From NCBI GenBank assembly GCA_964559915.1, contig CAZLJP010000002.1, forward strand, positions 2,423 through 66,422: 64,000 bases of DNA, written 5' to 3'. Below are positions 1,569 through 44,400 of this stretch, one piece after another (the stretch's first letter is position 1; the number at the start of each line of letters is the position of its first letter). Source of the stretch: an uncultured Candidatus Saccharibacteria bacterium. Its GTDB lineage: Bacteria; Patescibacteriota; Saccharimonadia; Saccharimonadales; JALRHH01. The translations under genes were made by a program, and so were the position numbers. The notes under the pieces were generated by a model. The model had not been told where the DNA came from. It worked only from the letters and a program-made list of their open reading frames with translations, and made no database searches.

Positions 1569-2945
1569 ATGGATGGACAGGATAGGGTACCAGCAGGGGC
1601 AAAAATCCCTCCTCAGAACACCGATGCAGAAGCCAGTTTGCTGGGGGCAATTCTCATTGACACTGACGCAATTGTTAAAATTGCTGATACTATCCGCGCC
1701 GACGACTTTTACGAAGAAAAACACCGTCGTATTTACGAGGCAGTTGTCAGTTTATACGAAAAGCACAGCCCGATTGATGTGCTGACATTATCTGACCAAC
1801 TGCGCGGTACTGGTTTTCTAGATATCGTGGGTGGCCCGGGCTATCTGACAGAGCTAACCAACTTTGTGCCAACGGCAACACACGTAGAACAATATGCTGA
1901 TATCGTGTCACAGAAGGCGCTGCGCAGGCGGCTTATTAAAGCATCGCAGGACATTGTTGGATTCGGTTACGACGAGGGACGTAGCTTACAGGATTTGATT
2001 GAAGAGGCTGAAAGCCGGTTGTTTGAGGTCAGTAATCGACATGTCAAACAAGATGTTACGAGTATTGAAACGATTCTAACGGAAAGCTTTGACCGACTAG
2101 ACGAACTCCACAAAGATAAGGGCAAGATTCGTGGCGTGCCAACTGGCTTCCGCGATCTGGATAATATCTTGGCTGGACTACAAAAATCTGATTTGTTTAT
2201 TCTGGCTGCACGTCCATCAATGGGTAAAACAGCCCTGGCACTTAACCTGGCACACAATATAGGCACCAAGTCTGATGCAGCCGTACTGATATTTAGTCTT
2301 GAAATGAGCAAGGAGCAGCTCGTTGACCGCATGCTATCTATGCAATCTGGTGTTGACGCCTGGGCACTTCGTACCGGTAATTTGAGCGACAGTGACTTCG
2401 AGAAAATTGGTCACGCCATGGGTGCACTCTCAGAGGCGCAGATATTTATTGATGATACACCTGGTATTACCGTGAGTGACCTTCGTACCAAAGCCCGCCG
2501 TGAAGCACATTTACACCCTGTTGGACTAGTTATTGTTGACTACTTGCAGTTGATGAGCGGCAGTAGCCGATTTGGTGGTGACGGCAACCGTGTGCAAGAA
2601 ATTTCTGAGATATCCCGTGGTCTCAAGGCCATTGCTAGGGAACTCAATGTGCCAGTAATTGCACTGAGCCAGTTGAGCCGCTCGGTAGAAAGCCGCCATC
2701 CACAAATTCCACAGCTAGCCGACCTTCGTGAGTCAGGTTCGATTGAGCAAGATGCCGATGTCGTAGCCTTTATTTACCGCGAAGATTACTACAATAATGA
2801 AACTGACCGTAAAAATATTACTGATATCTTTATCAAAAAACATCGTAATGGGCCCACCGGGGCAGTAGAACTATACTTTGACCGTGACAAACAACGTTTC
2901 CGCACACTAGACAGCAAACACAGTACTCCGTTCGACGCACAATAA
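1569..2945 (+). CDS. dnaB: replicative DNA helicase DnaB
   Basis: 458 aa; N-terminal PPQNxDAEASLLGAIL motif, Walker A ARPSMGKTA, Walker B LVIVDYLQL, LSQLSR motif. Confidence 0.95.
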   Translation: MDGQDRVPAGAKIPPQNTDAEASLLGAILIDTDAIVKIADTIRADDFYEEKHRRIYEAVVSLYEKHSPIDVLTLSDQLRGTGFLDIVGGPGYLTELTNFVPTATHVEQYADIVSQKALRRRLIKASQDIVGFGYDEGRSLQDLIEEAESRLFEVSNRHVKQDVTSIETILTESFDRLDELHKDKGKIRGVPTGFRDLDNILAGLQKSDLFILAARPSMGKTALALNLAHNIGTKSDAAVLIFSLEMSKEQLVDRMLSMQSGVDAWALRTGNLSDSDFEKIGHAMGALSEAQIFIDDTPGITVSDLRTKARREAHLHPVGLVIVDYLQLMSGSSRFGGDGNRVQEISEISRGLKAIARELNVPVIALSQLSRSVESRHPQIPQLADLRESGSIEQDADVVAFIYREDYYNNETDRKNITDIFIKKHRNGPTGAVELYFDRDKQRFRTLDSKHSTPFDAQ

Positions 2946-3037
2946 AACGTTATATCCTACGGATATTGCTGCAAGTACTCGTAAAATATAAGCAAGCTCC
3001 TACTTTCCTCCGTTCTTTTGCTATACTATCTATAATA

Positions 3038-4261
3038 ATGAAACTGACATTTAAGCGGGTGAGGGCGTTTTTCTTAGATAACTGGGCGCTGGGATTATTA
3101 ATCGCAGGTGGTGCGGCCATAGCCTCTTTTCTGCTGCTTTTCAGGCTCGGTAGCTTAGTCCAGGGCCTGTCAGTAGACGAGTTTGCCCTACAACAGCAGT
3201 TAGCGCACAACCAGTTTTCTCTTGGCACAATTATCCGTGACCCATTGTTCTTGCCATACTATGTGGGCTTGTATCTACTGCAGCTCACGCCATTTCATGG
3301 CCCTACGGCAGTACGTAGCATTGGGGCATTATTCGGTCTACTGGGTAGTCTTGGCTTCTTTTATGTTCTGCGGCACTGGTACACTACTAGAATTGCGTTC
3401 TTTGGTACCGCCCTGTTCGCTACGTCTGCGTGGTTTTTGCACAGTGCACGGTATGCCTCAGAAGATGCTACATATCTATTACTGCCGCTGCTGATTGCTG
3501 GTGTTATTGCACTACAAGCCCGAACACGCGCCAAACGGGCGGTGTTAGCAGTTGTGGTATTTGGTCTATTAGCGCTGTATATACCAGGTGTTATTTGGCT
3601 CATTGCCGCTGCCTTGTTCCTTAAGCGGCAAATCATTATCAGTGCTATCAAGCTGCAACCAGGCTGGTTTAATGCCATATTAGGAGTACTCACAGCTATA
3701 TTACTCAGCCCACTAGTTGTTATGCTAGCCAAGCCGTTACGAGGTAGCAGTTGGAGCCACAATATTCTTGATTTGTATGGACTACCTACGCGGCTGCCTA
3801 GTGTTGGTGACATTGCACATAACATCAAAGATACTTTCGCTGACATCTTTATATATAGCCATAACGGGCCAATTTACACAGCCGGGCACTTACCGTGGCT
3901 TGATATAGCCACCGTAGCCCTAGTCATTATTGGTGTGTATCAGTTCATCAAACACCGGGCATTAGATCGCAGCAAATTGATAGCCATTGTCGGCATTGCG
4001 AGCTTTATTTTAGTAGCCTTGGGCGGTGAAGTACCTTTGCTAGTTTTTCTGCCATTTGTATACTTAGTCGCCGTAGAAGGACTCAAGTGGCTGCTTGACA
4101 GCTGGCTCCGTGTCTTCCCACGTAACCCGTTTGCACGCAGCTTTGGCATCGTTATTATCGTACTCATTGTCGGTACAATATCTCTGTACCAGCTCAATCG
4201 ATACTTTCTAGCGTGGGGATTTAATCCTGAGACTCGCGCGGTATTCAACAAGCTGCCATAA
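3038..4261 (+). CDS. polytopic membrane glycosyltransferase, GT-C fold (GT39/GT83 ArnT/PMT-like), tentative
   Basis: About 12 predicted hydrophobic helices; DE motif (SVDEF) in the first extracytoplasmic loop. The track ORF starts at 2966, but the ATG at 3038 lies 10 nt after TATACT (3022-3027). Confidence 0.5.
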   Translation: MKLTFKRVRAFFLDNWALGLLIAGGAAIASFLLLFRLGSLVQGLSVDEFALQQQLAHNQFSLGTIIRDPLFLPYYVGLYLLQLTPFHGPTAVRSIGALFGLLGSLGFFYVLRHWYTTRIAFFGTALFATSAWFLHSARYASEDATYLLLPLLIAGVIALQARTRAKRAVLAVVVFGLLALYIPGVIWLIAAALFLKRQIIISAIKLQPGWFNAILGVLTAILLSPLVVMLAKPLRGSSWSHNILDLYGLPTRLPSVGDIAHNIKDTFADIFIYSHNGPIYTAGHLPWLDIATVALVIIGVYQFIKHRALDRSKLIAIVGIASFILVALGGEVPLLVFLPFVYLVAVEGLKWLLDSWLRVFPRNPFARSFGIVIIVLIVGTISLYQLNRYFLAWGFNPETRAVFNKLP

Positions 4262-4369
4262 ACTGCTACAATAGCTACGTTATCACAAGGGGTGAAGACA
4301 GAGGGTTGAGAAATAAAACTCTACCCTGAATCTTTTACCTCTCACCCTAATACGACTGCAAGGAGAACC

Positions 4370-4663
4370 ATGAGTAAATTTGACCAAGCAAAGATGCTAT
4401 TAAAACTGAAGAAAATGCAGAAAGAACTGCAGAAAATGACCATTGAAATAGAAAAAGGTGATGGCGCTGTAGTCGTAGAGATTACGGGTGAACAAAAGCT
4501 TAAGAAAGTACGTATTGACCCTGACTACGTAGACCTTGATGACATTGGCCAGCTGGAACGCTGGGTTGAAGATGCCGTCAAAGAAGCGATTGCTGAAAGT
4601 CAAAAGATTGCTGCAGAGAAAATGGGCCCCATGATGGGCGCACTGGGCGACCTGGGATTGTAA
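4370..4663 (+). CDS. ybaB: YbaB/EbfC family nucleoid-associated protein
   Basis: 97 aa; typical size and coiled N-terminus; conserved position between dnaX and recR; AAGGAG SD at 4360-4365. Confidence 0.85.
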   Translation: MSKFDQAKMLLKLKKMQKELQKMTIEIEKGDGAVVVEITGEQKLKKVRIDPDYVDLDDIGQLERWVEDAVKEAIAESQKIAAEKMGPMMGALGDLGL

Positions 4664-4666
4664 TTA

Positions 4667-5275
4667 ATGGCAGTACTGCCACCAGCATTAACTGAACTTA
4701 TTGAAGCACTTGGCGCTTTGCCTGGTGTTGGTCCGCGTACCGCGGAACGGTATGCCTACTATCTACTTAGGACTGATGCTGCTGTCGGCAAGCGCTTGGC
4801 ATTATCGGCCAGCACCATCCATGATAATATCGGCTACTGTAAAAAGACTTTTGCATTGGTAGAAAAGGGCAAAGAACTGTCTGACCTCTATACTAATCCA
4901 AACCGTGATAAGCAATTAATAGCGGTTGTGGCAGAGCCATTTGATATCGTGGCGATAGAGAAAACGGGCCAATTCAAAGGTACCTATCATGTGTTGGGTG
5001 GACTTGTATCGCCAATCGATGGCATTAACCCGGAGCAACTACGAATTAGTGAACTTATAGCACGTATTGATGAAGATAATGTAGAGGAAATTATATTAGC
5101 TACTAATGCCAGTGTAGAGGGTGAATCAACGGCGCTCTATATTCAACAGCAGCTTGGCGACCGCAAGGTTACTATTAGTCGTTTGGCTCGTGGCTTATCA
5201 GTGGGCGTAGACTTAGAGTACGCCGACCAAATTACCCTCGGCCGCGCCCTGTCAGAACGTACACAACTCCTATAA
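4667..5275 (+). CDS. recR: recombination protein RecR (Cys4 zinc-finger positions degenerate)
   Basis: 202 aa; HhH motif LPGVGPRTAERYAYYLL, Toprim region ILATNASVEGESTALYI; only one Cys where CxxC...CxxC is expected. Confidence 0.9.
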   Translation: MAVLPPALTELIEALGALPGVGPRTAERYAYYLLRTDAAVGKRLALSASTIHDNIGYCKKTFALVEKGKELSDLYTNPNRDKQLIAVVAEPFDIVAIEKTGQFKGTYHVLGGLVSPIDGINPEQLRISELIARIDEDNVEEIILATNASVEGESTALYIQQQLGDRKVTISRLARGLSVGVDLEYADQITLGRALSERTQLL

Positions 5276-5285
5276 ACCTGATACA

Positions 5286-6293
5286 ATGACCACAATGACT
5301 GAACAGATTAAGAATATTTTGGGCAATGTCCAGCGGATAGTTGTGCTTCAGGCCGATAACCCTGATGCGGACAGCCTTGGCAGCGCATTGGCACTTGAGG
5401 CTATTCTAAGCGAACAGGACAAGGATGTAGTCCTCTATTGTGCCGTAGACATCCCAGACTATCTTAAGTACCTGACAGGCTGGAGCCGAGTGGTGCGTGA
5501 TTTGCCCAAAGAATTCGATGCCAGCATTATCGTTGATGCATCAACTATGACCTTATTTGAAAAAGCTATAGAATCTGGCGAATTCAAGTGGCTGGCTGGC
5601 AAACCATGTATTGTATTTGATCACCATGCAGAAACAAATAATGACATAGATTTTGCTACCGTAGTACACAATCAGGACGGCGCATCATCAACTGCAGAAG
5701 TAATTTTTGATTTTGCCACGGCTGCCTACGACAACATTCCCAAAGATGCATTTGACCCCCTTATGGCTGCAATCTTAGGTGACACCCAAGGCCTAACAAA
5801 TCAGTTAGCCTCAGCCCATACCTATGAGGTTATGAGTAATCTGATAGGCGCTGGAGCTAATCGTCCTGCATTAGAAGACCAACGACGTGCTGCTAGTAAA
5901 ATGCATGAATCGATTTACCGCTATAAGGGACTTCTCATTGAGCGAACCCAGTTTGCCGCTGATAATCAAATTGCGTATGTGGCAATTCCTCACGAAGAAA
6001 TTAAAATATACAGCCCATTATATAATCCCGGGCCACTTATACAGCCCGATATGCTGCAGACCGAAGGTGTAAGAGTCGGCATCGTGTTCAAGGTATACGA
6101 TGATGGCAAAGTGACCGGCATGATACGTTGTAATGCAGATGCAGAAATAGCCAACAAGATTGCCGTACATTTTGGTGGTGGGGGTCACGGTTTTGCGGCT
6201 GGATTCAAGATTACCGATGGCCGACCATTTGATGAAATTAAATCTGAATGCATCGCCAAAACTATTGAATTACTACATACAGCCGGCAACTAG
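5286..6293 (+). CDS. DHH/DHHA1 family phosphoesterase (NrnA-like oligoribonuclease/pAp phosphatase)
   Basis: 335 aa; motifs DNPDADSLGS, VFDHHAE (DHH) and GGGHGFAAG (DHHA1). Confidence 0.8.
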   Translation: MTTMTEQIKNILGNVQRIVVLQADNPDADSLGSALALEAILSEQDKDVVLYCAVDIPDYLKYLTGWSRVVRDLPKEFDASIIVDASTMTLFEKAIESGEFKWLAGKPCIVFDHHAETNNDIDFATVVHNQDGASSTAEVIFDFATAAYDNIPKDAFDPLMAAILGDTQGLTNQLASAHTYEVMSNLIGAGANRPALEDQRRAASKMHESIYRYKGLLIERTQFAADNQIAYVAIPHEEIKIYSPLYNPGPLIQPDMLQTEGVRVGIVFKVYDDGKVTGMIRCNADAEIANKIAVHFGGGGHGFAAGFKITDGRPFDEIKSECIAKTIELLHTAGN

Positions 6294-6299
6294 ATTCGC

Positions 6300-6327
6300 T
6301 TGCAATTTGCCCATTCAATGCTATACT
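6300..6327 (+). promoter_or_regulatory. sigma-70-like promoter (TTGCAA-N16-TATACT)
   Basis: -35 at 6300-6305 and -10 at 6322-6327; an ATG follows 8 nt later at 6336. Confidence 0.45.
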
Positions 6328-6335
6328 AGCATCTT

Positions 6336-6395
6336 ATGCATACCGTAAAACACAGCCCAACAATGATGTGCTGCCGAGGGATTATCCTGCGGTAG
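6336..6395 (+). CDS. candidate leaderless 19-codon leader peptide MHTVKHSPTMMCCRGIILR with tandem Cys codons
   Basis: ATG 8 nt after the -10 box; TGC TGC at 6369-6374; stop at 6393; an intrinsic terminator follows 25 nt later; cysS is in the downstream operon. Confidence 0.3.
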   Translation: MHTVKHSPTMMCCRGIILR

Positions 6396-6419
6396 GTTTG
6401 CTGATTTATGTAATAAACA

Positions 6420-6449
6420 ACGGACCTCATCGGTCCGTTTTTGATTTTT
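6420..6449 (+). terminator. rho-independent terminator / possible attenuator
   Basis: 7-bp stem ACGGACC/GGTCCGT with a 5-nt loop, then TTTTTGATTTTT; sits 20 nt upstream of the ATG at 6469, whose SD is GAGAGGA. Confidence 0.6.
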
Positions 6450-6468
6450 AATAGAGAGGAAAATTAAA

Positions 6469-6957
6469 ATGAGTTATTCACCAGAAGCGTTTGGTACCGA
6501 AACATTACAAACCCCAGAAGAACGAGCAGAGCGTTTTGCGCGCGCTATTACAAGCCTTGTGGTTAACACTACTTTCTCTGAAGAAATGAGACTACCGGAC
6601 GACCCCAATTACACTGTTGTTCTGGATGACCCAAGGGGGCATTTCCCATTGCAACACATAAGCCCTTTAAATATTGGAGCAGAGCTTGGCTCACGCCAAA
6701 ATCGAATCTACGCGGTTAGTAGCGTTAACGATCCACGAATTGAAGAAGTTCGTAGCTTGCACAAGCTGCAAGTTGAGCTGAAACGTAGCCAGCTACCAGC
6801 TGACCAAGCACAGGCTCAGCAGTATCGTCATGTTGCACGTATTATCCAACGCAGCATTCCAAAGCCTCGCCAGTTTACGTTTAAAACAAGGACATTGGCT
6901 GACACTCTTGAAATTATTCGGCCTATAGACGACCCAAAATACTTCAATATAGGGTAA
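6469..6957 (+). CDS. hypothetical protein
   Basis: 162-aa ORF with a good SD; no family recognised. Confidence 0.55.
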   Translation: MSYSPEAFGTETLQTPEERAERFARAITSLVVNTTFSEEMRLPDDPNYTVVLDDPRGHFPLQHISPLNIGAELGSRQNRIYAVSSVNDPRIEEVRSLHKLQVELKRSQLPADQAQAQQYRHVARIIQRSIPKPRQFTFKTRTLADTLEIIRPIDDPKYFNIG

Positions 6958-9440: not shown

Positions 9441-10597
9441 TTGGCTATATTATCCTGCTTTGAGGGCCGTTTGGCAACGGCGTTTTGATAGATGTCCACT
9501 AGCTGTGGCCCAACGTATGCTACATCATATTGCTTCACGGCTTGTTGCTGTTCGTCATGAATGCGTGTTTTTATGGCATCATCACTAATAAACCTCTGTA
9601 AAGTACTACTAAAGGTTGCTGTATCTTGGGGGTCAAACAGGGTTTCTGGCCATGGAGCCAACACGCTGGCATAGCCCGGGTTACTACCACCCAGTACTAC
9701 CCCCGCATTTGCTGCCATACCCTCTAGCAAAACAATTCCAAAGCTTTCACCGCCCATAGCCGGAAATACTGCGATATCGGCTTGATGCAAGAAACTAGAC
9801 TTAGCCTCTTCCGTGATAAACCCATCAAACGACACTTGGCTTGCTAAATCATGTGCTTGTGCATAGTCCTGCAGAGTAGATAGTAGGGCGCCTTTGCCAC
9901 CGATATGAACCTCTACCATACTGCGTATATCTGCTGGGAGCCCGACAACTGCCTTGAGTAGCTGGAGGGCGCCTTTGCGTTCCACCAGACGACCCAAAAA
10001 CACAATGCGCGTTATTGGGCTGGTTTTGCGCTCAGGACCTTGTGTACTTTGCAGGGCAGATAGATTCACGACGTTTGGTAGTACAGTGGCCTCGACACCA
10101 AAGGCTTGCTTAGCAAATATGGCCGCTGGCTGAGAAACTGCTAATACCTTGTCGAAGCGACGCAGATTACGACGCAGAATGGCACCTAATAGACGTGTCG
10201 CCGTACGCTCGAGCGCTGCATAGGGCAAGATATGGAAGGTGCCGATAATAGCCGTGGTGGCGGGTGCAGCCGCAATAATACGTCCAGCCAAAAATGGACT
10301 GTATGGCATTTGGACATGCAAAACGTCGAACTGCTCGGTTTGTAATAACTGCTTGATGGCACGACGTTTGGCAGGCAAAGGAATAGTTAACTTATTTTTA
10401 TTAAATGTCACTGCAACATTGCGGCTGAGGCTATGAATATGAGCAATATCACTACGACTGGTTTGTCCGACCAGGTAATGGACCTCATGACCTTGCGCCG
10501 CTAACCATTCACCAAGTAATAAAACATATTGCTGCACACCATCAGGCTTGTCGAGTGTATCGTCTACGACCAAGCCTATCTTCATGGTTTGTGGCAT
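9437..10597 (-). CDS. glycosyltransferase family 4 (GT-B)
   Basis: 386 aa; N-terminal GGVQQYV-type motif; C-terminal E(x7)E region GESFGIVLLEGMAAN. Confidence 0.8.
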   Translation of the reverse strand: MPQTMKIGLVVDDTLDKPDGVQQYVLLLGEWLAAQGHEVHYLVGQTSRSDIAHIHSLSRNVAVTFNKNKLTIPLPAKRRAIKQLLQTEQFDVLHVQMPYSPFLAGRIIAAAPATTAIIGTFHILPYAALERTATRLLGAILRRNLRRFDKVLAVSQPAAIFAKQAFGVEATVLPNVVNLSALQSTQGPERKTSPITRIVFLGRLVERKGALQLLKAVVGLPADIRSMVEVHIGGKGALLSTLQDYAQAHDLASQVSFDGFITEEAKSSFLHQADIAVFPAMGGESFGIVLLEGMAANAGVVLGGSNPGYASVLAPWPETLFDPQDTATFSSTLQRFISDDAIKTRIHDEQQQAVKQYDVAYVGPQLVDIYQNAVAKRPSKQDNIAK

Positions 10598-37079: not shown

Positions 37080-37535
37080 ATGGTTAAGAAAAAGCCCACT
37101 CAGACCAAGATTATCAGTAACCGCCGCGCCCGCCATGACTATGAGCTGGGTGATAGTTTAATTGTGGGCCTAGAACTAAATGGCCGCGAGACCAAAGCAC
37201 TTCGTATGGGTCATGGCCAGCTGCAGGGCGCCTACGTGACAGTCAAGGATAATGAGCTGTGGCTGCTAAACTGCACAATTCACGGCACCAATGGCATACC
37301 TATAGATGAGTCAGAACAAGCTCGTACCCGCAAACTACTGGCTAAACGCAAACAAATAGATGAGTTTATTGCAGCCAAACACCAGGGCAAGAGCATCATT
37401 CCACTTGAGATTCTGACTCGCGGCCGTTATATCAAAGTTCGCATATCTCTGGGTAGGGGCAAGAAGCACTATGACAAGCGCCAGACGCTCAAAAAGCGCG
37501 ACGAAGAGCGTGATGCTCGACGCCTAGCTGTCTAG
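37080..37535 (+). CDS. smpB: SsrA-binding protein SmpB
   Basis: 151 aa; ISNRRARHDYEL, GxETKALR-like motif and a basic C-terminal tail. Confidence 0.92.
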   Translation: MVKKKPTQTKIISNRRARHDYELGDSLIVGLELNGRETKALRMGHGQLQGAYVTVKDNELWLLNCTIHGTNGIPIDESEQARTRKLLAKRKQIDEFIAAKHQGKSIIPLEILTRGRYIKVRISLGRGKKHYDKRQTLKKRDEERDARRLAV

Positions 37536-37671: not shown

Positions 37672-37746
37672 TCCCGGGTGGCGCAGCGGTAGCGCAGTTG
37701 ACTGTTAATCAATTGGTCGCCGGTTCGAATCCGGCCCCGGGAGCCA
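37672..37746 (+). tRNA. tRNA-Asn (anticodon GUU), CCA encoded
   Basis: 75-nt cloverleaf read by hand: acceptor TCCCGGG/CCCGGGA, anticodon stem GTTGA/TCAAT with loop CTGTTAA, T arm GCCGG-TTCGAAT-CCGGC. Confidence 0.92.
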
Positions 37747-37752
37747 TGAAAG

Positions 37753-37778
37753 AAGACTCACATCTGTGGGTCTTTTTT
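37753..37778 (+). terminator. rho-independent terminator after tRNA-Asn
   Basis: 9-bp stem AAGACTCAC/GTGGGTCTT, 4-nt loop, T6 run. Confidence 0.8.
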
Positions 37779-37836
37779 CATGCTTCTGAGTCGGATTTGA
37801 ACCGGATCTTTTGTGAAACAAAAGCGGTTCGATAAG

Positions 37837-37876
37837 CAAGGCCACGCGCAGGAGCTAGCTCCGAGCATGGCTGCTG
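37837..37876. repeat. copy A of a 40-nt conserved core (GGAGCTAGCTCC hairpin inside a longer helix)
   Basis: 31/40 identical to 40348-40387; two base-pair positions covary between the copies. Confidence 0.6.
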
Positions 37877-37888
37877 GTTATATGTAAT

Positions 37889-37908
37889 AATCCGGCCCCG
37901 GGAGCCAT
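37889..37908 (+). repeat. exact 20-nt direct repeat of the tRNA-Asn 3' end (aatccggccccgggagccat)
   Basis: Identical to 37728-37747; att-like duplication 142 nt downstream of the tRNA. Confidence 0.9.
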
Positions 37909-37916
37909 ACAAAGAG

Positions 37917-37940
37917 CCCACCATTTTAGGTGGGTTTTTT
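37917..37940 (+). terminator. rho-independent terminator nested inside a 25-bp inverted repeat
   Basis: Stem CCCACC/GGTGGG, loop ATTTTA, T6 run. Confidence 0.7.
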
Positions 37941-37962
37941 GTATGGCTCCCGGGGTCGGATT
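37938..37962 (-). repeat. inverted copy of the tRNA-Asn 3' end motif (one mismatch)
   Basis: tttgtatggctcccggggtcggatt is the reverse complement of 37889-37913 with one substitution. Confidence 0.85.
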
Positions 37963-38291
37963 AACAGAACGTTCGATAATTTGACCGATCAGGGAAAATT
38001 ATATGCCGAAGCTAAGAATGACAAGTCCTATAAGAAATAAAGTCATTCCTGGCCTGAAGCTATAATCCGGCCAAAATCACAGGTCGCCCGGTTAGGTCTT
38101 CAAGGGCTATCGCAGGAATTCATTCTGAGAAAGCCTGTAGAAGTGCATCAGTCGGCCGATAGAGCCAATATCATAGTTAGAAATCCTAAATCGCCGAAAA
38201 TAACAGAAAAACAGACAAGACGAACGAACTTATTGCCGGCATTCTACCGATAATCAACCATAACAAATAGAAAATCCGTGTAAAATATCTT

Positions 38292-38777
38292 CTATTTACC
38301 GAATAACTGCGTTGAAAGCTCTGGTTCATCGGTTTCGGTCAGCAGATAAATACTGGCATTATCAAGTTCTTGTCTTGTACTACTATTCAAACCAAATGAC
38401 TGGCTAAAGATTTCTAGTATTTTGTGCTCTGAATCATCTCGTGCAACTCGGTTAATCGAAATCTTCTGGCATGCCAAACAGAGATGGATTAACATAATCT
38501 CACCTAGTCGATAATAGCCTTCGTGCTTAAATGTTAAGCCGATTGGCTCCATGCCGCCACAACAGGTTGCACGGCGGTCACCCTTAGTCTCGTCAACATG
38601 TTTTGACCAAAGGCACCAGTTGCAGTGGTTACGGTTGACCGTACCCATAATGTCGTTGATAACGACAAACTGTTTACAGTGCGAACAACGGAAGCCACCA
38701 GCTTTATGTTCTCGATTCCATTCCTGTTTTCTACGTTTTTTGTAATCTAATTCATCACTATACTCATAGCGTTTCAT
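38292..38777 (-). CDS. RNHCP domain-containing Cys-rich protein
   Basis: 161 aa; CSHC, NRNHCNWC, CCGG and CLAC cysteine clusters matching the RNHCP-domain pattern. Confidence 0.7.
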   Translation of the reverse strand: MKRYEYSDELDYKKRRKQEWNREHKAGGFRCSHCKQFVVINDIMGTVNRNHCNWCLWSKHVDETKGDRRATCCGGMEPIGLTFKHEGYYRLGEIMLIHLCLACQKISINRVARDDSEHKILEIFSQSFGLNSSTRQELDNASIYLLTETDEPELSTQLFGK

Positions 38778-38792
38778 CTATATCCCTACATG

Positions 38793-38817
38793 AAAAAACC
38801 AGCCAATACTGGCTGGT
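38793..38817 (-). terminator. rho-independent terminator inside the 5' leader of the RNHCP gene (attenuator segments 3:4)
   Basis: Minus-strand RNA ACCAGCCA-GTAT-TGGCTGGT followed by TTTTTT, 16 nt upstream of the SD (AGGGA) and ATG at 38777. Confidence 0.7.
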
Positions 38818-38880
38818 CATGCTGGATAGGTAGATGTACTAACTATTTTCTAAATTGATGTTCGAGTTAAGCTGTTTTTT

Positions 38881-38929
38881 GACCAGCCAGAAACTACCGC
38901 CTCGATAGCGGTGACGACTTCTGCACTGG
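38881..38929 (-). promoter_or_regulatory. candidate antiterminator (segment 2) and anti-antiterminator (segment 1) of the RNHCP leader
   Basis: RNA CTGGCTGGTC (reverse complement of 38881-38890) is a perfect 10-nt complement of terminator 5' arm GACCAGCCAG (reverse complement of 38809-38818). It can alternatively pair with CCAGTGCAGAA (reverse complement of 38919-38929). Confidence 0.45.
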
Positions 38930-39185
38930 TTGTGGTTTTATATCTGTAACTTAACATACATAGAAATTTTGGCACATAGATATATGTGCGTCAAATAATT
39001 GTTAGGTGTGAGGCTTCTATTTACAGGTATTGCAAGGTTAATATTCAATAACCCCAACAAGGTCGGTGTCAACTGTTTCTTCTATCGTGTTGGCTAGCTC
39101 GCAGTACCGGTACGCACATACGGCAACTTCATGCCAAAACTTCCTTTATCAGTCGTAACTTACACTCATCAAAATCCACACTTGC

Positions 39186-39215
39186 GGTTCGAAACTCGTC
39201 TGCTACCGGGAGCCA
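39186..39215 (+). repeat. tRNA-3'-end-like motif copy (ggttcgaaactcgtctgctaccgggagcca)
   Basis: Shares GGTTCGAA and CGGGAGCCA with the tRNA-Asn 3' end; internal 4-bp stem CTCG/CGGG with an 8-nt loop; followed by the terminator CACTTTG/CAAGGTG and TTTTTGTTT. Confidence 0.6.
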
Positions 39216-39273
39216 AGCATAAGCACTTTGTTGAAAGGCAAGGTGTTTTTGTTTAATTTGCTAAAATAATCAA

Positions 39274-39642
39274 ATGATAGAAATTGGCATTGAAACATCA
39301 ATTCTAGAAGACATCCTCTCTGGCAAAAAAACTATTGAATGCAGGCTAGGCAAGCAAAAGTTTCTGAAGATTAGGCCTGGAGACGTATTAAGCATTCGAG
39401 AAGATACATGGAAAGGTGACAAGATACTTCGCAGTATTCCAAATAGGGCAGAGATAAAGGTCACTCAAATTTTATATTTTGAAACTTTTACTGAGGCGTT
39501 CGCATCAATAGACTTTAAGGAAGCCATCCCAAGTGCAGCCTCGCCCAGTGAGGCAGTGGAAGCATATCGTAAATTTTATACTTCGGAAGACGAAAAAAAG
39601 TACGGGGTGGTAGCTATATATTTTGAACTCTTGCAGTTCTAA
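39274..39642 (+). CDS. ASCH (PUA-like) domain protein
   Basis: 122 aa; LSGKKTIECRLGK...IRPGD pattern typical of ASCH domains. Confidence 0.55.
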   Translation: MIEIGIETSILEDILSGKKTIECRLGKQKFLKIRPGDVLSIREDTWKGDKILRSIPNRAEIKVTQILYFETFTEAFASIDFKEAIPSAASPSEAVEAYRKFYTSEDEKKYGVVAIYFELLQF

Positions 39643-39664
39643 CCTCATCGACTAGAGGGAGTTA
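39636..39664 (+). repeat. tRNA-3'-end-like motif copy (gttctaacctcatcgactagagggagtta)
   Basis: 25/29 identical to 40208-40236; stem CCTC/GAGG with an 8-nt loop; overlaps the stop codon of the ASCH gene. Confidence 0.6.
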
Positions 39665-39703
39665 TAACGCTTAAGCTTTACAAACTATCATTTTTGTGGT
39701 ATT

Positions 39704-40198
39704 TTGTTTTTTATGTCAGAGGCATTCTCACCGCCAACCCAGCAAAAGCACGATGAACCGCATCTTGCACAAGATGTATTACTTTGGATAGTAAATGATT
39801 ACTTCCCGACAGAAGAAGATAGAGAGTTAGCCGAGTCTAGAAAAGCCGAAATCTTGGACGACATCCCATTTGATGTTTTGTATGCTCATTTAAATGATGA
39901 AGGTGAAGTGGGTATGGATGCCGATTATATTGGTGGTCTCCTATTACTAGCAAAAGAACGTATAGATGCAACTCCTGATGCAACCTCACAACTCACCAAT
40001 CTCAACATTATTCGCAACATGTCTGGTCACAATTTGAGTAAACCTACACCAACAGGTTTTCAATCACTCGCGCCCTCAAAGATACTGCGTGGCGAACTTG
40101 GACAAGAAACACAACTCGATTTCTTGCGAGGAATATTCTACGGAGTGCAGCTTGCAATTGAAGCCACTCAAATGGAAGATAAAGTTACTGAGGCATAA
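39704..40198 (+). CDS. hypothetical acidic protein
   Basis: 164-aa ORF (alternative ATG at 39713); no family recognised. Confidence 0.5.
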   Translation: MFFMSEAFSPPTQQKHDEPHLAQDVLLWIVNDYFPTEEDRELAESRKAEILDDIPFDVLYAHLNDEGEVGMDADYIGGLLLLAKERIDATPDATSQLTNLNIIRNMSGHNLSKPTPTGFQSLAPSKILRGELGQETQLDFLRGIFYGVQLAIEATQMEDKVTEA

Positions 40199-40206
40199 TT
40201 AGAATT

Positions 40207-40236
40207 AGTTCCAACCTCGTCGACTAGAGGGAGCCA
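40207..40236 (+). repeat. tRNA-3'-end-like motif copy (agttccaacctcgtcgactagagggagcca)
   Basis: Ends in GGGAGCCAT like the tRNA-Asn; stem CCTC/GAGG with an 8-nt loop; followed by a terminator ending GGGTCTTTTTT, as after the genuine tRNA. Confidence 0.65.
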
Positions 40237-40347
40237 TACAGAAAAGATCCTTATTCGAGGGTCTTTTTTGTATCTCCCCGTGTCGCATCCGAATTGGTGA
40301 CCGCAGATTTTCTTTAGAAAATATACAAGGTTGCCGAGTTTGGTCAT

Positions 40348-40387
40348 CAAGACCGCGCACAGGAGCTTGCTCCAAACACGGTTGCAG
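40348..40387. repeat. copy B of the 40-nt conserved core (GGAGCTTGCTCC hairpin)
   Basis: 31/40 identical to 37837-37876; same position relative to a preceding GGGAGCCAT motif and GGGTCTTTTTT terminator. Confidence 0.6.
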
Positions 40388-40592
40388 ATGTGCAACTATC
40401 CGAGCCCAAATTTGTTATTATAAGCGCAGGAATAGTAAACAGAAATCTTACGTAAACCAATTGTTTATTTTTTATGTTCAAAGTGCTACATTTACGAGAG
40501 ATGTGGCCAGGAGTCTTTGCATAAAAGCTGAGGGGGAAGACAACCTGTGACGTTATTATTTAATAAAGCTGAGATTCTAAGAAGGATGCGAG

Positions 40593-41978
40593 ATGGTAAA
40601 AGTTACAAAAATTGACACACCAGAACCAAGCAAGCATACGAAAAAGTCGTTGACCTCACTAGGTGTATTTAAGCGATGGTACACGAGGAAACCAGTAATT
40701 ATCACACTTTTGATATTTTTATTCCCTGTAGGCCTGGCACTAATGTGGAAGTTTGCTGTATGGACTAAAAAGACCAGGTGGGTTGTCACGGGGGTGACGG
40801 CGTTGTTAGTAATATTGGGTGCAATCGGTATCTACAACTCCACCCCTTCTATCGTCGTCAACAACACAAAAGGCAACAAGATAAACACTGATGATAGAGA
40901 ATATACACTTATGGGCAGAGTGTCTACGGCTAAGGGCGTAGCTAACCTGACTATTGATGGGCGATTCGTGTCCCTTACTGAAGACTCGGAATTCTCATAT
41001 AAAGTATCACTAGAAGAGGGTGATAATACTTTTAATCTAGCCTCCACAAATGAAAATGGTACATACGAAAAGTCAATACAGATACACCGTACAACCCAAG
41101 CTGAATTTGCAGCCAGAGCAGAATCAGAGAAGCTCAAAGCCGATAAAAATACCAACAAAGAGAGAAAAACTGAAGCACCAGCCCAGAAAAGCACAAATAG
41201 CGATGCATTCTACATCAACAATGCGTATTACAAAGGTGACAGTAAATACGACGTTGTCGTATACAGTTCCAGCAAGGATACTTTACAAATCTATATCAAT
41301 GACAAAAATCCAGTAAAAACCAAAGTAAACGATGAGGGTTGGGCTACGTTTAAGAATATCAAACTTAGCGGACGGTCAAAGCTGAGCTTTGCAAAAAAAG
41401 TTGGATGGATTAAGTATTCTCCTGTAAATTACGTTAAGTATATAAGCGTAGGCGGTAAGCAAGTAAAGTTAATGGATGCTGCCGAAGCGGTAGCGCTTGA
41501 TAAAGCTGATGCCGAAGCCAAAGCGGCAGCTGAAGCCAAGGCTCAAGCTGAAGCACAAGCCCAACACAACGCATATATAGGCGGCCTAGCAAAAACGTAC
41601 TGTTCAAATCATGCTGCGTGGAGAAAAATATATGTACCGCAAAGCACTTCAAAAGATGCGTGGGATAACCCGAACAAAGACTTAGTAACTACAAACCCTA
41701 AACAATCAGATTGCGTAACGATAATGACATTTTTTGTCGATGTTATGCTTTCAGAACACGTGGATAACATTGTCAATAAGAAAGTGGCAGTCGACATGAA
41801 TAGGGCTGAGGTGCTTGCATCTTGGGGTTGGCCCAATAACAACAGTAACTACTCATCGAGCTTAGGATCGTCTGATACTTGGAACTACAACACCGGAACT
41901 TGCTACTACGGTATATGTCCCAACCAGCAGTATGTTAATTTCTATAATGGCAAGGTGACAAGCACCGGAAATTACTAA
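40593..41978 (+). CDS. membrane-anchored extracytoplasmic hypothetical protein with an Ala/Glu/Lys/Gln-rich linker
   Basis: 461 aa; two N-terminal TM segments, AEAKAAAEAKAQAEAQAQ low-complexity linker, Cys-containing C-terminal domain; SD AAGGA. Confidence 0.6.
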   Translation: MVKVTKIDTPEPSKHTKKSLTSLGVFKRWYTRKPVIITLLIFLFPVGLALMWKFAVWTKKTRWVVTGVTALLVILGAIGIYNSTPSIVVNNTKGNKINTDDREYTLMGRVSTAKGVANLTIDGRFVSLTEDSEFSYKVSLEEGDNTFNLASTNENGTYEKSIQIHRTTQAEFAARAESEKLKADKNTNKERKTEAPAQKSTNSDAFYINNAYYKGDSKYDVVVYSSSKDTLQIYINDKNPVKTKVNDEGWATFKNIKLSGRSKLSFAKKVGWIKYSPVNYVKYISVGGKQVKLMDAAEAVALDKADAEAKAAAEAKAQAEAQAQHNAYIGGLAKTYCSNHAAWRKIYVPQSTSKDAWDNPNKDLVTTNPKQSDCVTIMTFFVDVMLSEHVDNIVNKKVAVDMNRAEVLASWGWPNNNSNYSSSLGSSDTWNYNTGTCYYGICPNQQYVNFYNGKVTSTGNY

Positions 41979-42065
41979 GAAACATCACGAGCAAATCTTG
42001 AGAATATACTGCATGAATTTGGCGGCTCATACTCAATATATACCTTCAGGAAGTCATCACACTTC

Positions 42066-42095
42066 AGTTCGAAACTCGTTCACTAGCGGGAGCCA
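42066..42095 (+). repeat. tRNA-3'-end-like motif copy (agttcgaaactcgttcactagcgggagcca)
   Basis: Close relative of 39186-39215, including the upstream cacactt; stem CTCG/CGGG with an 8-nt loop; a terminator follows (CTTCTG/CAGAGG then TTTTGTTTT). Confidence 0.6.
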
Positions 42096-42151
42096 TGAGC
42101 ATTGTGACTTCTGTTTCAACAGAGGTTTTGTTTTATGCTATACTCAAAATT

Positions 42152-42334
42152 ATGAGTGAAACCATTAGCAATCCAGATGGTTTAGATGAGAACTTCTGGG
42201 GACCTGCACCTACCGAAGAAGACATTGCAACTGCTGAATTAGAAATGGCAGAACGTGCTAAAAAATGGGAAACTAATCCTCCTAAAAGACCAGCGTACTA
42301 TCAACGACACCCAGACGCCTCAGAGCCTATCTAG
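42152..42334 (+). CDS. small hypothetical protein (60 aa)
   Basis: ATG 8 nt after TATACT (42138-42143); the track ORF start at 42095 lies inside the repeat/terminator and is unlikely. Confidence 0.45.
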   Translation: MSETISNPDGLDENFWGPAPTEEDIATAELEMAERAKKWETNPPKRPAYYQRHPDASEPI

Positions 42335-42340
42335 AGAAGC

Positions 42341-42370
42341 AGTCCTAACCTAGTAAGTTAGAGGGAATTA
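42341..42370 (+). repeat. diverged tRNA-3'-end-like motif copy (agtcctaacctagtaagttagagggaatta)
   Basis: Aligns with the 39636 and 40207 copies; a weaker hairpin; followed by the terminator ACCTCTG/CAGAGGT and TTTTTGTTTT. Confidence 0.45.
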
Positions 42371-42425
42371 AAAGTATTTGACCTCTGTTAACGCAGAGGT
42401 TTTTGTTTTCTGTTAGTATAAAGAT

Positions 42426-43112
42426 ATGCACAAAGAGCTATCTATTACTCTTATTGGCTCATTCAAGAAAGATCCTGAAGCGTTAAAGATTCTCTTTAAA
42501 CAACTTTCTGAGCAGTACACCATTCTCTCTCCAAAAACTATTGATTGGGTTGACCCCAATGATGAGTTCTTACGTGCTAAGCATGAAGGTGATAAGACTG
42601 TTCAAGAAATTGAAGAAGCTCACTTACATGCAATCCGCAACTCCGACTTCACGGTACTAGTTACACCCGATGGTTACGTGGGTCTTAGTGGTTCTCTAGA
42701 AGTAGGGTTTGCTCATGCGTTGGGAATACCAGTCATCGCAACAGAGACAGTCAATGATCAGACTATTGCAGCCATGGTTGACGGTATCCTTGGTGAAACA
42801 ATTGGCACTCATGATTACGGACGTGGTCTCAAAGCCTTACAGAAACAGTACGCCACTATTGCTAAGCGCAATAAATGGGACAAAGAATCTGCTCGCGACA
42901 CGATGTTGCTTTTAACCGAAGAAGTCGGTGAGTTGGCTCGAGCAATTCGCAAACACGAGGGCCTGGACAGAGATGGTGGATTTGACGTTCAGCTGAGCGA
43001 AGAACTGGCGGATGTACAGATATACTTGGCGCACTTAGCAAACACTGTTTCTATTGATCTTGGCGATGCGGTCACTAATAAGATAATAAAGAACCAGAGT
43101 AAAAAGACATGA
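42426..43112 (+). CDS. fusion protein: nucleoside 2-deoxyribosyltransferase-like N-terminal domain plus MazG-type nucleotide pyrophosphohydrolase C-terminal domain
   Basis: 228 aa; C-terminal EEVGELARAIRK...EELADVQIYLAHLAN is a MazG signature; N-terminal IGSF...AIRNSDFTVLV...GYVGLSGSLEVGFAHALGIPV resembles the NDT/Rcl-like Rossmann fold. Confidence 0.55.
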   Translation: MHKELSITLIGSFKKDPEALKILFKQLSEQYTILSPKTIDWVDPNDEFLRAKHEGDKTVQEIEEAHLHAIRNSDFTVLVTPDGYVGLSGSLEVGFAHALGIPVIATETVNDQTIAAMVDGILGETIGTHDYGRGLKALQKQYATIAKRNKWDKESARDTMLLLTEEVGELARAIRKHEGLDRDGGFDVQLSEELADVQIYLAHLANTVSIDLGDAVTNKIIKNQSKKT

Positions 43113-43136
43113 ATTCATAACCCGTTCTGGTTATGC

Positions 43137-43164
43137 TTGCAGTTATTTCTTATAGGCATACAAT
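43137..43164 (+). promoter_or_regulatory. promoter TTGCAG-N16-TACAAT with upstream GGTTATGC
   Basis: Member of the TTATGCTTGC motif set; the downstream gene has a strong AGGAGGAGG SD. Confidence 0.4.
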
Positions 43165-43213
43165 ATTTAAAATTCTGACGAATGTTTTTAGATAAACCAT
43201 AGGAGGAGGCAAT

Positions 43214-43588
43214 ATGTTTGGTCACAAGAACGAAGAATGGAAAACTCCAGTTGGTGAACTCTTTGTACATAGTCATGTCTATGAATCACAAGATGGAGCC
43301 GAACATGAAGGACTTGAAGAAGTCACCACAAGAAGTGCTTTCAATTTCTCCAAGAAACTCGGCCGCTTAAGACAAAAGCACGCCCCAGAATCACAGGCCA
43401 TTATCCCAACTGGTGTCGATGAGATAGGGGAGTTTATTGCTGACTCATTCGGCAAACTGCGTGAAGCCTCAATGCAGCAATCTGATTTTATGTCAGGTGA
43501 TGTCTTTGTTGTTGGCAAGAACGGTAGTTTGCGGCGTATTAATGAAGATGGCTCACAACAACAAATCATTGAACCTAGCCGCGTATAG
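43214..43588 (+). CDS. hypothetical protein
   Basis: 124-aa ORF with a strong SD; no family recognised. Confidence 0.55.
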   Translation: MFGHKNEEWKTPVGELFVHSHVYESQDGAEHEGLEEVTTRSAFNFSKKLGRLRQKHAPESQAIIPTGVDEIGEFIADSFGKLREASMQQSDFMSGDVFVVGKNGSLRRINEDGSQQQIIEPSRV

Positions 43589-43621
43589 CAATAGTCGGAG
43601 AGGTTTTTGTTTTGGTTATGC

Positions 43622-43650
43622 TTGCAACTGGGCACGAGATTTGAAATATT
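43622..43650 (+). promoter_or_regulatory. promoter TTGCAA-N17-AATATT with upstream GGTTATGC, 6 nt before the ATG
   Basis: Read directly; leaderless geometry. Confidence 0.4.
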
Positions 43651-43656
43651 AAAGTC

Positions 43657-43941
43657 ATGTGTGAATTCAACAGCCCTTACTCTCTATCAAGTGGCCATTG
43701 CTTAGACAACCCAGCAGCGCCCAGCTACACCAGAACCGAGCCTATCGTACAGTCACCCCAGGCTTGGGAAACACGAGCGGCCGAGCTAGATGAAAGTCAT
43801 GCTGCAGTTATTGCCCAGGCAGAGAACGATGCAGCTGCACTGCAAGCTGATGTGCACTTTTATAAGTCACTTGGTTCAAAATTCATCGGGATTGCACTGA
43901 GGCCTGGCACTGGCCCAACAGTAAAAATCTGGGAACATTAG
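43657..43941 (+). CDS. hypothetical protein
   Basis: 94-aa ORF; no family recognised. Confidence 0.45.
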   Translation: MCEFNSPYSLSSGHCLDNPAAPSYTRTEPIVQSPQAWETRAAELDESHAAVIAQAENDAAALQADVHFYKSLGSKFIGIALRPGTGPTVKIWEH

Positions 43942-43942
43942 G

Positions 43943-43974
43943 ATTAGCCCCGCCCTCGTCCACCAGGGAACCCA
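43943..43974 (+). repeat. most diverged tRNA-3'-end-like motif copy (attagccccgccctcgtccaccagggaaccca)
   Basis: Stem CCCT/AGGG with an 8-nt loop; followed by agcataagcact, the same 12-mer that follows the 39186 copy. Confidence 0.45.
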
Positions 43975-44139: not shown

Positions 44140-44400
44140 ATGGCAACTAAATTATACGTAGGTGGACTCTCATACAGCGTCAAAGATACTGATCTTGAGG
44201 CAATGTTTACAGAATTTGGCACCGTAGCCAGCGCAAAAGTAATCACTGACCGTGACAGCGGCCAATCAAAAGGTTTTGGATTTGTTGAGTTGAACGACGA
44301 TGCAGAAGCAAAAGCCGCAATTGCAGCCCTAAACGGCAAAGACGTTGAAGGCCGCAGCCTGACCGTCAACGAAGCACGTCCCCAAACTGACCGTCGCTAG
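44140..44400 (+). CDS. RRM-type RNA-binding protein
   Basis: 86 aa; RNP2 KLYVGGL and RNP1 KGFGFVEL; about 125-nt 5' UTR after an extended -10 (TGGTATAAT near 44005). Confidence 0.9.
   Translation: MATKLYVGGLSYSVKDTDLEAMFTEFGTVASAKVITDRDSGQSKGFGFVELNDDAEAKAAIAALNGKDVEGRSLTVNEARPQTDRR

Follow-up and report, generated by a model that had tools for sequence, protein, structure and literature searches.

What is a repeat of about 30 nucleotides (nt), resembling the end of a tRNA gene, doing at six places between small genes of an uncultured Candidatus Saccharibacteria bacterium? The repeat lies between positions 39186 and 43974 of a 64,000-nt stretch of contig CAZLJP010000002.1, which was analysed as a whole and is here called the window. 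A first-pass annotation had described it as a conserved structural motif and considered a recombination site of the attC type, a tRNA-like processing element of the mRNA or a protein-binding site. Our analysis supports a recombination site, though not one of the attC type: the motif is probably the element-side left half (P arm) of the attachment site of elements which carry a large serine recombinase (LSR) and integrate at the end of the tRNA-Asn gene, and the copies in the window are probably leftover junctions of such elements.

The repeat and its relation to tRNA-Asn

A strict 29-nt core, GTTCSAAMCTCGTNNNCTASNGGGAGCCA, is present at 39187, 40208 and 42067, while 0 occurrences are expected in shuffled sequences. 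When a sequence-only model was built from 78 distinct core copies, these three and the copy at 39636 were significant (E 2e-8 to 6e-6, scores in Table 1), and no further site below E = 1 was found in the whole 64 kb. Four of the six copies first described were thus confirmed, whereas the other two (given then as 42341 and 43943, here 42342 and 43946) are decayed, non-significant by sequence and recognisable solely by the homologous flank which follows them. The reported placement right after stop codons was found at four of the six copies, with the stop codon at 39640-42 lying inside the motif and gaps of 9, 7 and 2 nt at the others, but not at 39187 or at 42067 (88 nt).

The resemblance to tRNA-Asn is real. 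In a MAFFT alignment the 3' end of the tRNA gene aligns to the motif with a single 5-nt gap, and GGGAGCCA occurs 8 times compared to 1.66 expected, six of the occurrences being within 37739-42095. Behind every copy there is a hairpin and a T run, then a promoter-like stretch and then the next gene. The stretch of 140 nt behind the tRNA has homologues behind the motif at 40208 and behind a motif of another Saccharibacteria locus, L123. Based on these shared right flanks and on the alignment, the tRNA end and the motif are interchangeable left partners of the same right-hand sequences. The flank type of copy 1 is also found behind copy 6 and behind copies in loci L123, L102 and L034, and the flank of copy 2 resembles that of the tRNA-Asn gene in locus L003 (39658-39718 of the window compared to 387-447 of L003). 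The tRNA-Asn end, …CCGGGAGCCA, is the start of the array and corresponds to the chromosomal left half (B) of the attachment site.

A gene end on the reverse strand

On the reverse strand, the ten positions at which the core is free to vary behave as first or third codon positions: the codons there are CGA or AGA (Arg), CCN (Pro), NTA (Leu, Val or Ile), NTG (Val, Leu or Met) and GAN (Glu or Asp). Every copy, when reversed, encodes W-L-P-x-x-(D/N)-(E/D)-x-R-T, 0-35 further residues and a stop codon. The tails form families with conservative substitutions, and their codon periodicity is moderate, with a synonymous fraction of 0.18-0.29 in the recombinase frame compared to 0.02-0.25 in the others. 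Upstream, the open reading frame (ORF) continues for 16 codons (median) and no start codon precedes the W, and when the encoded peptides were compared to a protein database, singly and as a profile, only ORFs of 30-69 amino acids (aa) were matched. The motif therefore has the appearance of a gene end without a gene. The outcome of the database search is understandable if only the unintegrated element has the gene in its long form; in addition, the listed full-length homologues, described below, have other residues, such as LLR or LRR, in place of W-L-P.

A BLAST search of an array unit against plasmids gave three matches at E = 9, one of them in a 'TcmP' gene. The forward-frame peptide suggested by this match (NFVHYGEP) was rejected, as TAG or TAA interrupts the frame in 45 of the 77 distinct cores.

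The large serine recombinase gene

LSR genes with Resolvase, Recombinase and Zn-ribbon domains were present in 7 of the 126 motif loci (654 kb in total), among them L028, L091, L094, L111 and L119. In six of the loci the LSR gene is located 3.5-8 kb upstream of the motif and on the opposite strand, and the genes in between encode replication-initiator-like and SpoVG-like proteins and a methyltransferase. In L094 it is directly downstream and on the same strand. In L119 and L028 a split tRNA-Asn gene lies just beyond the LSR gene.

The three complete LSR genes (L119, L028 and L094) end in antisense tRNA-Asn sequence, reading …PIWLPGLDSNQ, …KWLLGLDSNQ and …EFWLRGQDSNLRPTR, respectively, before the stop codon. 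When the LSR of L119 or L028 was joined at its W-L codons to the far motif of the same element, a longer in-frame ORF was obtained (550 and 525 aa, respectively), and these rebuilt ORFs end in the motif-encoded peptide and its tail. The tRNA-side and motif-side junctions share 10 nt in L119 and 7-8 nt in L028. As only GGAGCCA(T) is shared in L028, the crossover should lie in the last bases of the tRNA gene and would therefore never damage the tRNA. In L094, 71 C-terminal LSR codons run straight into a motif (…NFGKTEF/WLPIWDEVRTYFERGLDMEN and stop), and in L076, which is syntenic with the window, a 172-aa C-terminal fragment of an LSR continues into a site resembling the motif, at a distance of 600 nt from the tRNA-Asn gene. 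The identity of the motif, and its link to both the LSR gene and tRNA-Asn, can be read directly from these loci.

The LSRs have more than 3,500 homologues in the database. Among the best 120, many end in antisense-tRNA peptides (…DSNQ, …DSNLxP), and other full-length homologues end in x-x-x-x-x-D-x-V-R-T and a tail, for example …L-R-R-x-L-D-E-V-R-T-W-I-…; the DNA at these tailed ends is GGTTCGAACTTCGTCCA... (L130, L131). A profile of the motif-encoded peptides matches the profile of the homologue C-termini in register, with a probability of 88% and E 3e-6.

L094 differs in one further respect. At 4884-6792 its LSR gene lies between inverted copies of GGAGCCA with at least 42 nt of identical flank, one copy being on the motif and the other on a tRNA-Asn gene that is followed by a 53-nt partial duplicate. 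This arrangement looks like the product of an inversion or of a nested rearrangement.

A proposed origin of the copies

We propose that the LSR inserts elements at GGAGCCA, the last ~7 bases of the tRNA-Asn gene. As long as the element is free, its site would lie inside the 3' end of the LSR gene, on the strand opposite to the tRNA, and the motif, when reversed, would be a displaced alternative end of the LSR, …W-L-P-x-x-D-E-x-R-T with a tail of 10-35 aa. The motif would correspond to the part of tRNA-Asn that reaches from the T loop to the 3' CCA, with five added bases which in the antisense direction would avoid an early stop and keep the frame open. Integration would spare the tRNA and leave the LSR gene ending in antisense tRNA sequence (…WLPGLDSNQ and stop), while the displaced motif and tail would stay at the far junction, before the hairpin that was formerly downstream of the tRNA. 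Each copy in the window would then be a P half joined to a B' flank, and the copies would delimit cargo blocks of one to three genes. An origin at the far junction would explain the terminator hairpin after each copy, the likeness to the tRNA end and the fact that sequence, not structure, is conserved across phyla. The conservation may reflect a half site bound by the recombinase together with a conserved peptide, both anchored on the universal end of tRNA-Asn. It is also possible that the tail-less recombinase of the integrated element behaves differently.

The arrays would grow and be shuffled through LSR reactions between these types of site. By one route, excision at the nearer or the farther P/B' junction would leave cargo behind or take it along. 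By another, a circular cargo block with a P/B' site would recombine with the tRNA-side junction; the order tRNA, hairpin, one gene, motif and LSR gene end in L076 is the product expected from this second route. The most far-reaching version, a cross-phylum, integron-like gene-capture system in which an LSR carrying its own site docks at tRNA-Asn and, through alternative pairings of four site types, picks up, deposits and shuffles one-gene cassettes, each of them bounded by hybrid sites of recombinase tail and tRNA flank and offering the LSR a different C-terminal tail when it comes to lie next to the gene, is a tentative proposal, which we consider rather doubtful at present.

Related arrays

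In an exact-pattern scan of one genome per species the core was found in three Saccharibacteria and also in contigs binned as Myxococcota and Thermotogae with a GC content of 0.56-0.64. With a looser pattern it was found in at least 120 metagenome stretches with a GC content of 0.30-0.64. The Saccharibacteria loci L003, L076, L123 and L102 have the same layout as the window: smpB comes first, tRNA-Asn follows, and after it there is a series of one- or two-gene blocks. The motif closes each block, and in many cases the stop codon abuts it. Only smpB, the tRNA and the repeat units are common to the window and these four loci, and no cargo gene is shared. The locus beside tRNA-Asn is hypervariable in Saccharibacteria.

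A 27-kb contig from another lineage contains at least 10 copies about 1.1 kb apart. The cargo genes in the arrays of other lineages are unrelated and include Fic, hydrolases, a TetR regulator, SnoaL, an acyl-CoA dehydrogenase and a HEPN/nucleotidyltransferase pair. Most genes there run opposite to the motif, an orientation that speaks against a function of the motif linked to the sense transcript. In the family of large arrays the downstream flank of the tRNA (GCAAACCAAGCG and a hairpin) is the same as the flank behind every motif copy. Every unit keeps the right flank specific to its family, and the hairpins differ but are compensated. The blocks are very small (0.3-1.9 kb), often hold a single gene and end 0-10 nt from the core in several genomes.

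The tRNA next to the motif is nearly always tRNA-Asn, upstream and on the same strand, as seen in 13 loci besides the window; in two of these the tRNA is split by a group I intron. Exceptions were found in L008 (tRNA-Met), L070 (tRNA-Ser and tRNA-Arg), L119 (an additional tRNA-Ser) and L094 (tRNA-Asn inverted relative to the motif).

Several of the loci have features of interest in themselves. The group I intron in the anticodon loop of the L119 tRNA-Asn is at 5043-5330 (Rfam RF00028, 92.7 bits), and in L028 an intron of the same kind and position at ~9600-10160 (minus strand) contains an ORF resembling an HNH endonuclease (9755-10099); because of the split anticodon loop, ARAGORN misses the tRNA in both. 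Doublets, in which a truncated motif lies 30-55 nt upstream of a complete one, occur in L033 (~2470-2560, minus strand), L105, L114, L122 and L126, and one copy in L033 has a 33-nt hairpin insertion inside the core. In L018 a group II intron that carries an ORF for a reverse transcriptase (2601-4396) is located exactly between the flank hairpin and the motif. Class C introns insert at places of this kind, behind a terminator or an attC site.

Partner switching at the core

Adjacent gene blocks of related metagenomic arrays change partners inside a zone of about 40 bases around the core. When all loci were compared, 13 locus pairs shared one distal flank of a copy and not the other, and in most of them the switch point fell in the interval from -7 to +30 of the 29-nt core, while four others switched at +59/+64 or -56. 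Two related arrays differ by a 6.3-kb cassette block between two copies. Conserved cassettes hold their order across related arrays while others come and go.

Site-specific recombination or inert scars

The strongest competitor is that the copies are inert scars: independent integrations at tRNA-Asn followed by deletions, with the switching brought about by homologous recombination and no site-specific exchange at the level of cassettes. No recombinase was found in the window, decay has affected two of the six copies, the most frequent mismatches abolish the GCCA end, and scrap lies beside the tRNA (the 19-nt tRNA duplicate and the inverted copy, Table 1). Repeat units of 40-90 nt could also support RecA-dependent exchange. 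On the other hand, the canonical LSR cycle destroys the tRNA-side site at the first integration and serial integration is thus unexpected, and scars would hardly account for the tiny blocks which end so close to the core in several genomes, for the family-specific right flanks with compensated hairpins in every unit, or for the clustering of switch points at the core. As a general account, we consider inert scars possible but not probable. For the window itself, homologous recombination and decay is a serious alternative.

A number of observations weigh against our own interpretation. No LSR gene or fragment was detected in the 64-kb window by tblastn with 14 LSR queries (best E 0.013, which is noise) or by a motif regular expression, although not every ORF was scanned against Pfam, and nothing thus shows that the motif copies of the window are active now. 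The core had 0 matches in viral contigs in two scans with two patterns, so that no motif-bearing locus is of viral-collection origin, and no free circular element was seen. The presence of LSR genes at the motif loci was judged to be an enrichment against a general expectation of about 1 per Mb, with no measured control. The family of cores was gathered with a fixed pattern, so that the invariance at 19 positions is partly imposed, and in 71 degenerate copies changes that are synonymous in the recombinase frame are only mildly enriched (23% compared to 16% expected). The partner switching could be due to homologous recombination across the ~40-90 nt repeat. Finally, only two reactions are open to canonical LSRs, namely those of attP with attB and of attL with attR. 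Tandem P/B' junctions are not a product of this textbook cycle, and growth of the arrays thus needs a non-standard or multi-step route.

An RNA element

The first-pass annotation had described a covarying 4-bp stem with an 8-nt loop, and had taken structure kept despite sequence drift as the sign of a function. Neither claim survived. The CTCG/CGGG and CCTC/GAGG versions of the stem occupy different alignment columns, and in neither register was there any compensatory pair (0 among 78 sequences), a count which is affected by the search pattern, as it fixed one side of every stem pair and made double changes invisible. The free side of the stem shows no preference for the complement, with G opposite C11 in 40 of 78 sequences. 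Pairing was 64% and 70% in the two registers, equal to shuffled controls and no better than slid controls, and the folding z-scores of the six copies were -1.2 to +0.44, with minimum-energy structures that differ between copies. Further copies do exist, but they brought no covariation. No Rfam family matched the motif in the region of the window (gathering threshold and E up to 5) or in seven array loci. As covariation is absent, folding is ordinary and Rfam gives nothing, the repeat is not explained by conservation of a structure; its variation instead agrees with a reading as codons of the reverse strand.

A tRNA-like tag at mRNA 3' ends, recognised by RNase P, by RNase Z or by the CCA-adding enzyme, or a stability element, in either case conserved for a small stem-loop, is accordingly very unlikely. 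In the window and in Saccharibacteria relatives the motif does lie on the sense strand, with a stop codon just upstream and a terminator hairpin behind it, and GGTTCGAA and CCGGGAGCCA are common to the motif and tRNA-Asn. However, the motif has neither a 5' acceptor strand nor a T stem, and its upstream sequence is unconserved. ARAGORN and Rfam (E up to 5) found only the true tRNA in the region and no tRNA-like structure, and ARAGORN with lowered thresholds and introns allowed gave only noise. In addition, most genes of the large metagenomic arrays of other phyla are opposite to the motif, and in related loci the reverse frame is part of a recombinase ORF.

Integrons and other known systems

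The least probable of the explanations is an integron-type system, in which the units would be attC-like and served by IntI or another tyrosine recombinase targeting tRNA-Asn: the unrelated small genes with toxin-antitoxin-type cargo (Fic, HEPN/nucleotidyltransferase), the class C-like group II intron beside one unit, as at attC sites, and the tRNA 3' end as a classical target of tyrosine integrases would suit it, but the unit has no box complementary to GTTCTAAC and thus no attC-like bottom-strand hairpin, no tyrosine recombinase signature was found in any locus with a crude regular expression (ORFs of at least 180 aa), and the ORF which physically contains the site encodes a serine recombinase. 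Paired inverse core (RYYYAAC) and core (GTTRRRY) boxes with extrahelical bases were absent from the unit, and neither an integron integrase (IntI) nor attI was found at the head of the arrays among the ORFs scanned; the arrays begin at tRNA-Asn, which in Saccharibacteria follows smpB. The suggestion of a recombination site was therefore right in that the core lies inside a recombinase gene and at the junctions of element and tRNA and that swaps map to it, and wrong in that the site is not attC-like. A dyad-symmetric site of the Xer/dif type was also rejected, as judged by eye. LSR sites typically span about 40-50 bp with imperfect dyad symmetry around a crossover with a 2-bp stagger; on inspection by eye, the 29-nt core and its flanks show no clear dyad.

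By enzyme family, the system belongs with the large serine integrases of phages and integrative and conjugative elements (ICEs). Like the phiC31, Bxb1, A118, TP901-1 and CcrAB integrases, the LSRs have Resolvase, Recombinase and Zn-ribbon domains and short identity at the junctions (7-10 nt here). Most known serine integrases of phages and ICEs insert into protein-coding genes, and their attP is not part of the integrase ORF, whereas here the target is the tRNA-Asn 3' end, attP is inside the gene and resembles attB over ~24 nt, and tandem arrays of one junction type are found.

In mechanism, the closest analogue is the SSV1-type integrases of Fuselloviridae and pTN3-like elements, although the system is not a member of that group. 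There attP is inside the integrase gene and matches a tRNA end, and integration partitions the gene, leaving a fragment at the far junction. The site matching a tRNA gene end, its position within the recombinase ORF and the splitting of the gene upon integration are common to both. The SSV1-type enzymes are tyrosine recombinases of archaeal viruses and plasmids with the site near the 5' part of the gene, while here a bacterial LSR is concerned and only the last 10-45 codons are displaced.

With integron arrays and clusters of attC sites lacking integron-integrases (CALINs) the arrays share the rows of small, unrelated blocks, often with a promoter or a single gene, the repeated site between them, a content wholly different between related genomes and the existence of orphan arrays without a recombinase. 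They differ in having no attC-type fold, IntI or attI, in being anchored at a tRNA gene and in a repeated site that is half recombinase-gene end and half tRNA flank. ICESt-type cis-mobilisable elements and the tycheposons of Prochlorococcus are integrase-less cargo bounded by partial tRNA repeats downstream of a tRNA, and integrase-less cargo segments between such repeats are seen here as well. Those systems depend on tyrosine recombinases and have tRNA-identical repeats, while the repeats seen here differ by an insertion of 5 nt and descend from coding sequence, and the blocks are far shorter. TnpX and TndX are serine recombinases which join several related sites, the ends, joint and target being alike; they might serve as a model for a permissive serine recombinase, but their elements do not target tRNA genes. 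In the literature searched no description of the present system was found, although it may have been published all the same.

The window

The window, being without a recombinase, holds an orphan and partly decayed cassette array. smpB (37080-37535) directly precedes the tRNA-Asn gene, which is followed by an island of low GC content at ~38-44 kb (0.40-0.44 compared to 0.47-0.49 on either side). To the right of copy 6, beyond 44 kb, the value is back to 0.47, and a gene for an RRM protein at 44140 marks the resumption of the core genome. The genes of the island are small and, with the exception of the RNHCP gene, nearly all on the plus strand; five of the ORFs have no match to any family. The features are listed in Table 1.

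Table 1. Features of the tRNA-Asn locus in the window, with positions counted from its first nucleotide
Feature	Position	Strand	Basis and remarks
tRNA-Asn(GTT) gene	37672..37746	+	ARAGORN; Rfam 70.9 bits
Hairpin and T run directly 3' of the tRNA; putative right half of the site (B')	37747..37780	+	Homologous to flank behind motif 40208
Conserved non-coding module: minus-strand T-arm-like piece and long hairpin	37781..37888		Also behind motif 40208
Exact 19-nt duplicate of tRNA-Asn 3' end	37889..37907	+	Own hairpin follows, 37908-37940
Inverted copy of tRNA-Asn 3' end	37944..37962	-	Sequence comparison within window
Cargo gene, RNHCP domain	38292..38777	-	Pfam PF12647, E 1.2e-24
Motif copy 1, putative element-side half site (P)	39187..39215	+	26.1 bits; minus strand reads WLPVADEFRTASVDFDECKLRLIKEVLA and stop
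Flank of copy 1, B' type: AGCATAAGCACT, hairpin and T run	39216..39256	+	Terminator-like at 39221-39248
Cargo gene, ASCH domain	39274..39642	+	Pfam PF04266, E 2e-13
Motif copy 2, overlapping ASCH stop codon	39636..39664	+	22.9 bits; end decayed from GCCA to GTTA
Cargo gene without family match	39704..40198	+	
Motif copy 3	40208..40236	+	29.7 bits
Hairpin and conserved module as at 37747-37888	40237..40400		Homology and alignment
Cargo gene, 461 aa, N-terminal membrane segment	40593..41978	+	
Motif copy 4	42067..42095	+	30.7 bits
Cargo ORF, 79 aa	42095..42334	+	
Motif copy 5, decayed	42342..42370	+	Flank hairpin common to copy 4, L003 and L076
Cargo gene, nucleoside 2-deoxyribosyltransferase-like and MazG-like fusion	42426..43112	+	
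Two cargo ORFs without family match, 43214-43588 and 43657-43941	43214..43941	+	
Motif copy 6, decayed, right end of island	43946..43974	+	Flank GCATAAGCACT common to copy 1, 90% over 20 nt

Three further observations concern the window. A module of ~110 nt follows the terminator of the tRNA or motif at 37781-37888 and 40270-40400, and at 3874-3996 of L123. Its minus strand carries GGTTCAAATCCGAC, which resembles a T arm, and a long hairpin in which the three copies show 7 compensatory pairs; the module may encode a small RNA, serve as an accessory site for recombination or be the remnant of some other element that targets tRNA genes. A promoter-like stretch, GGTTATGCTTGCA, is found upstream of two cargo ORFs within one block (43115-43180 and 43600-43655) and also in L102 at 5199-5226, identical (100%) over 28 nt. 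At ~58.3-61.9 kb, far from the array, there are ORFs whose translations, as read, resemble a C5 DNA methyltransferase (FAGVGG... motif) and a restriction enzyme.

Significance

The analysis gives a concrete molecular identity to a hypervariable tRNA-Asn locus found in Saccharibacteria and in many uncultured lineages. The genomes of these organisms are tiny, and the routes by which they gain genes are poorly understood. In practice, the 29-nt core provides a cheap annotation marker for the boundaries of such islands and for mis-called ends of recombinase genes. The LSR family appears to combine three oddities, namely a tRNA target, a site inside its own gene and cassette-like arrays. If the enzyme does build the arrays, it would represent a second, independent cassette platform besides integrons, and the universal GGAGCCA end of bacterial tRNA-Asn would then be a broad-host docking site with possible use in genome engineering.

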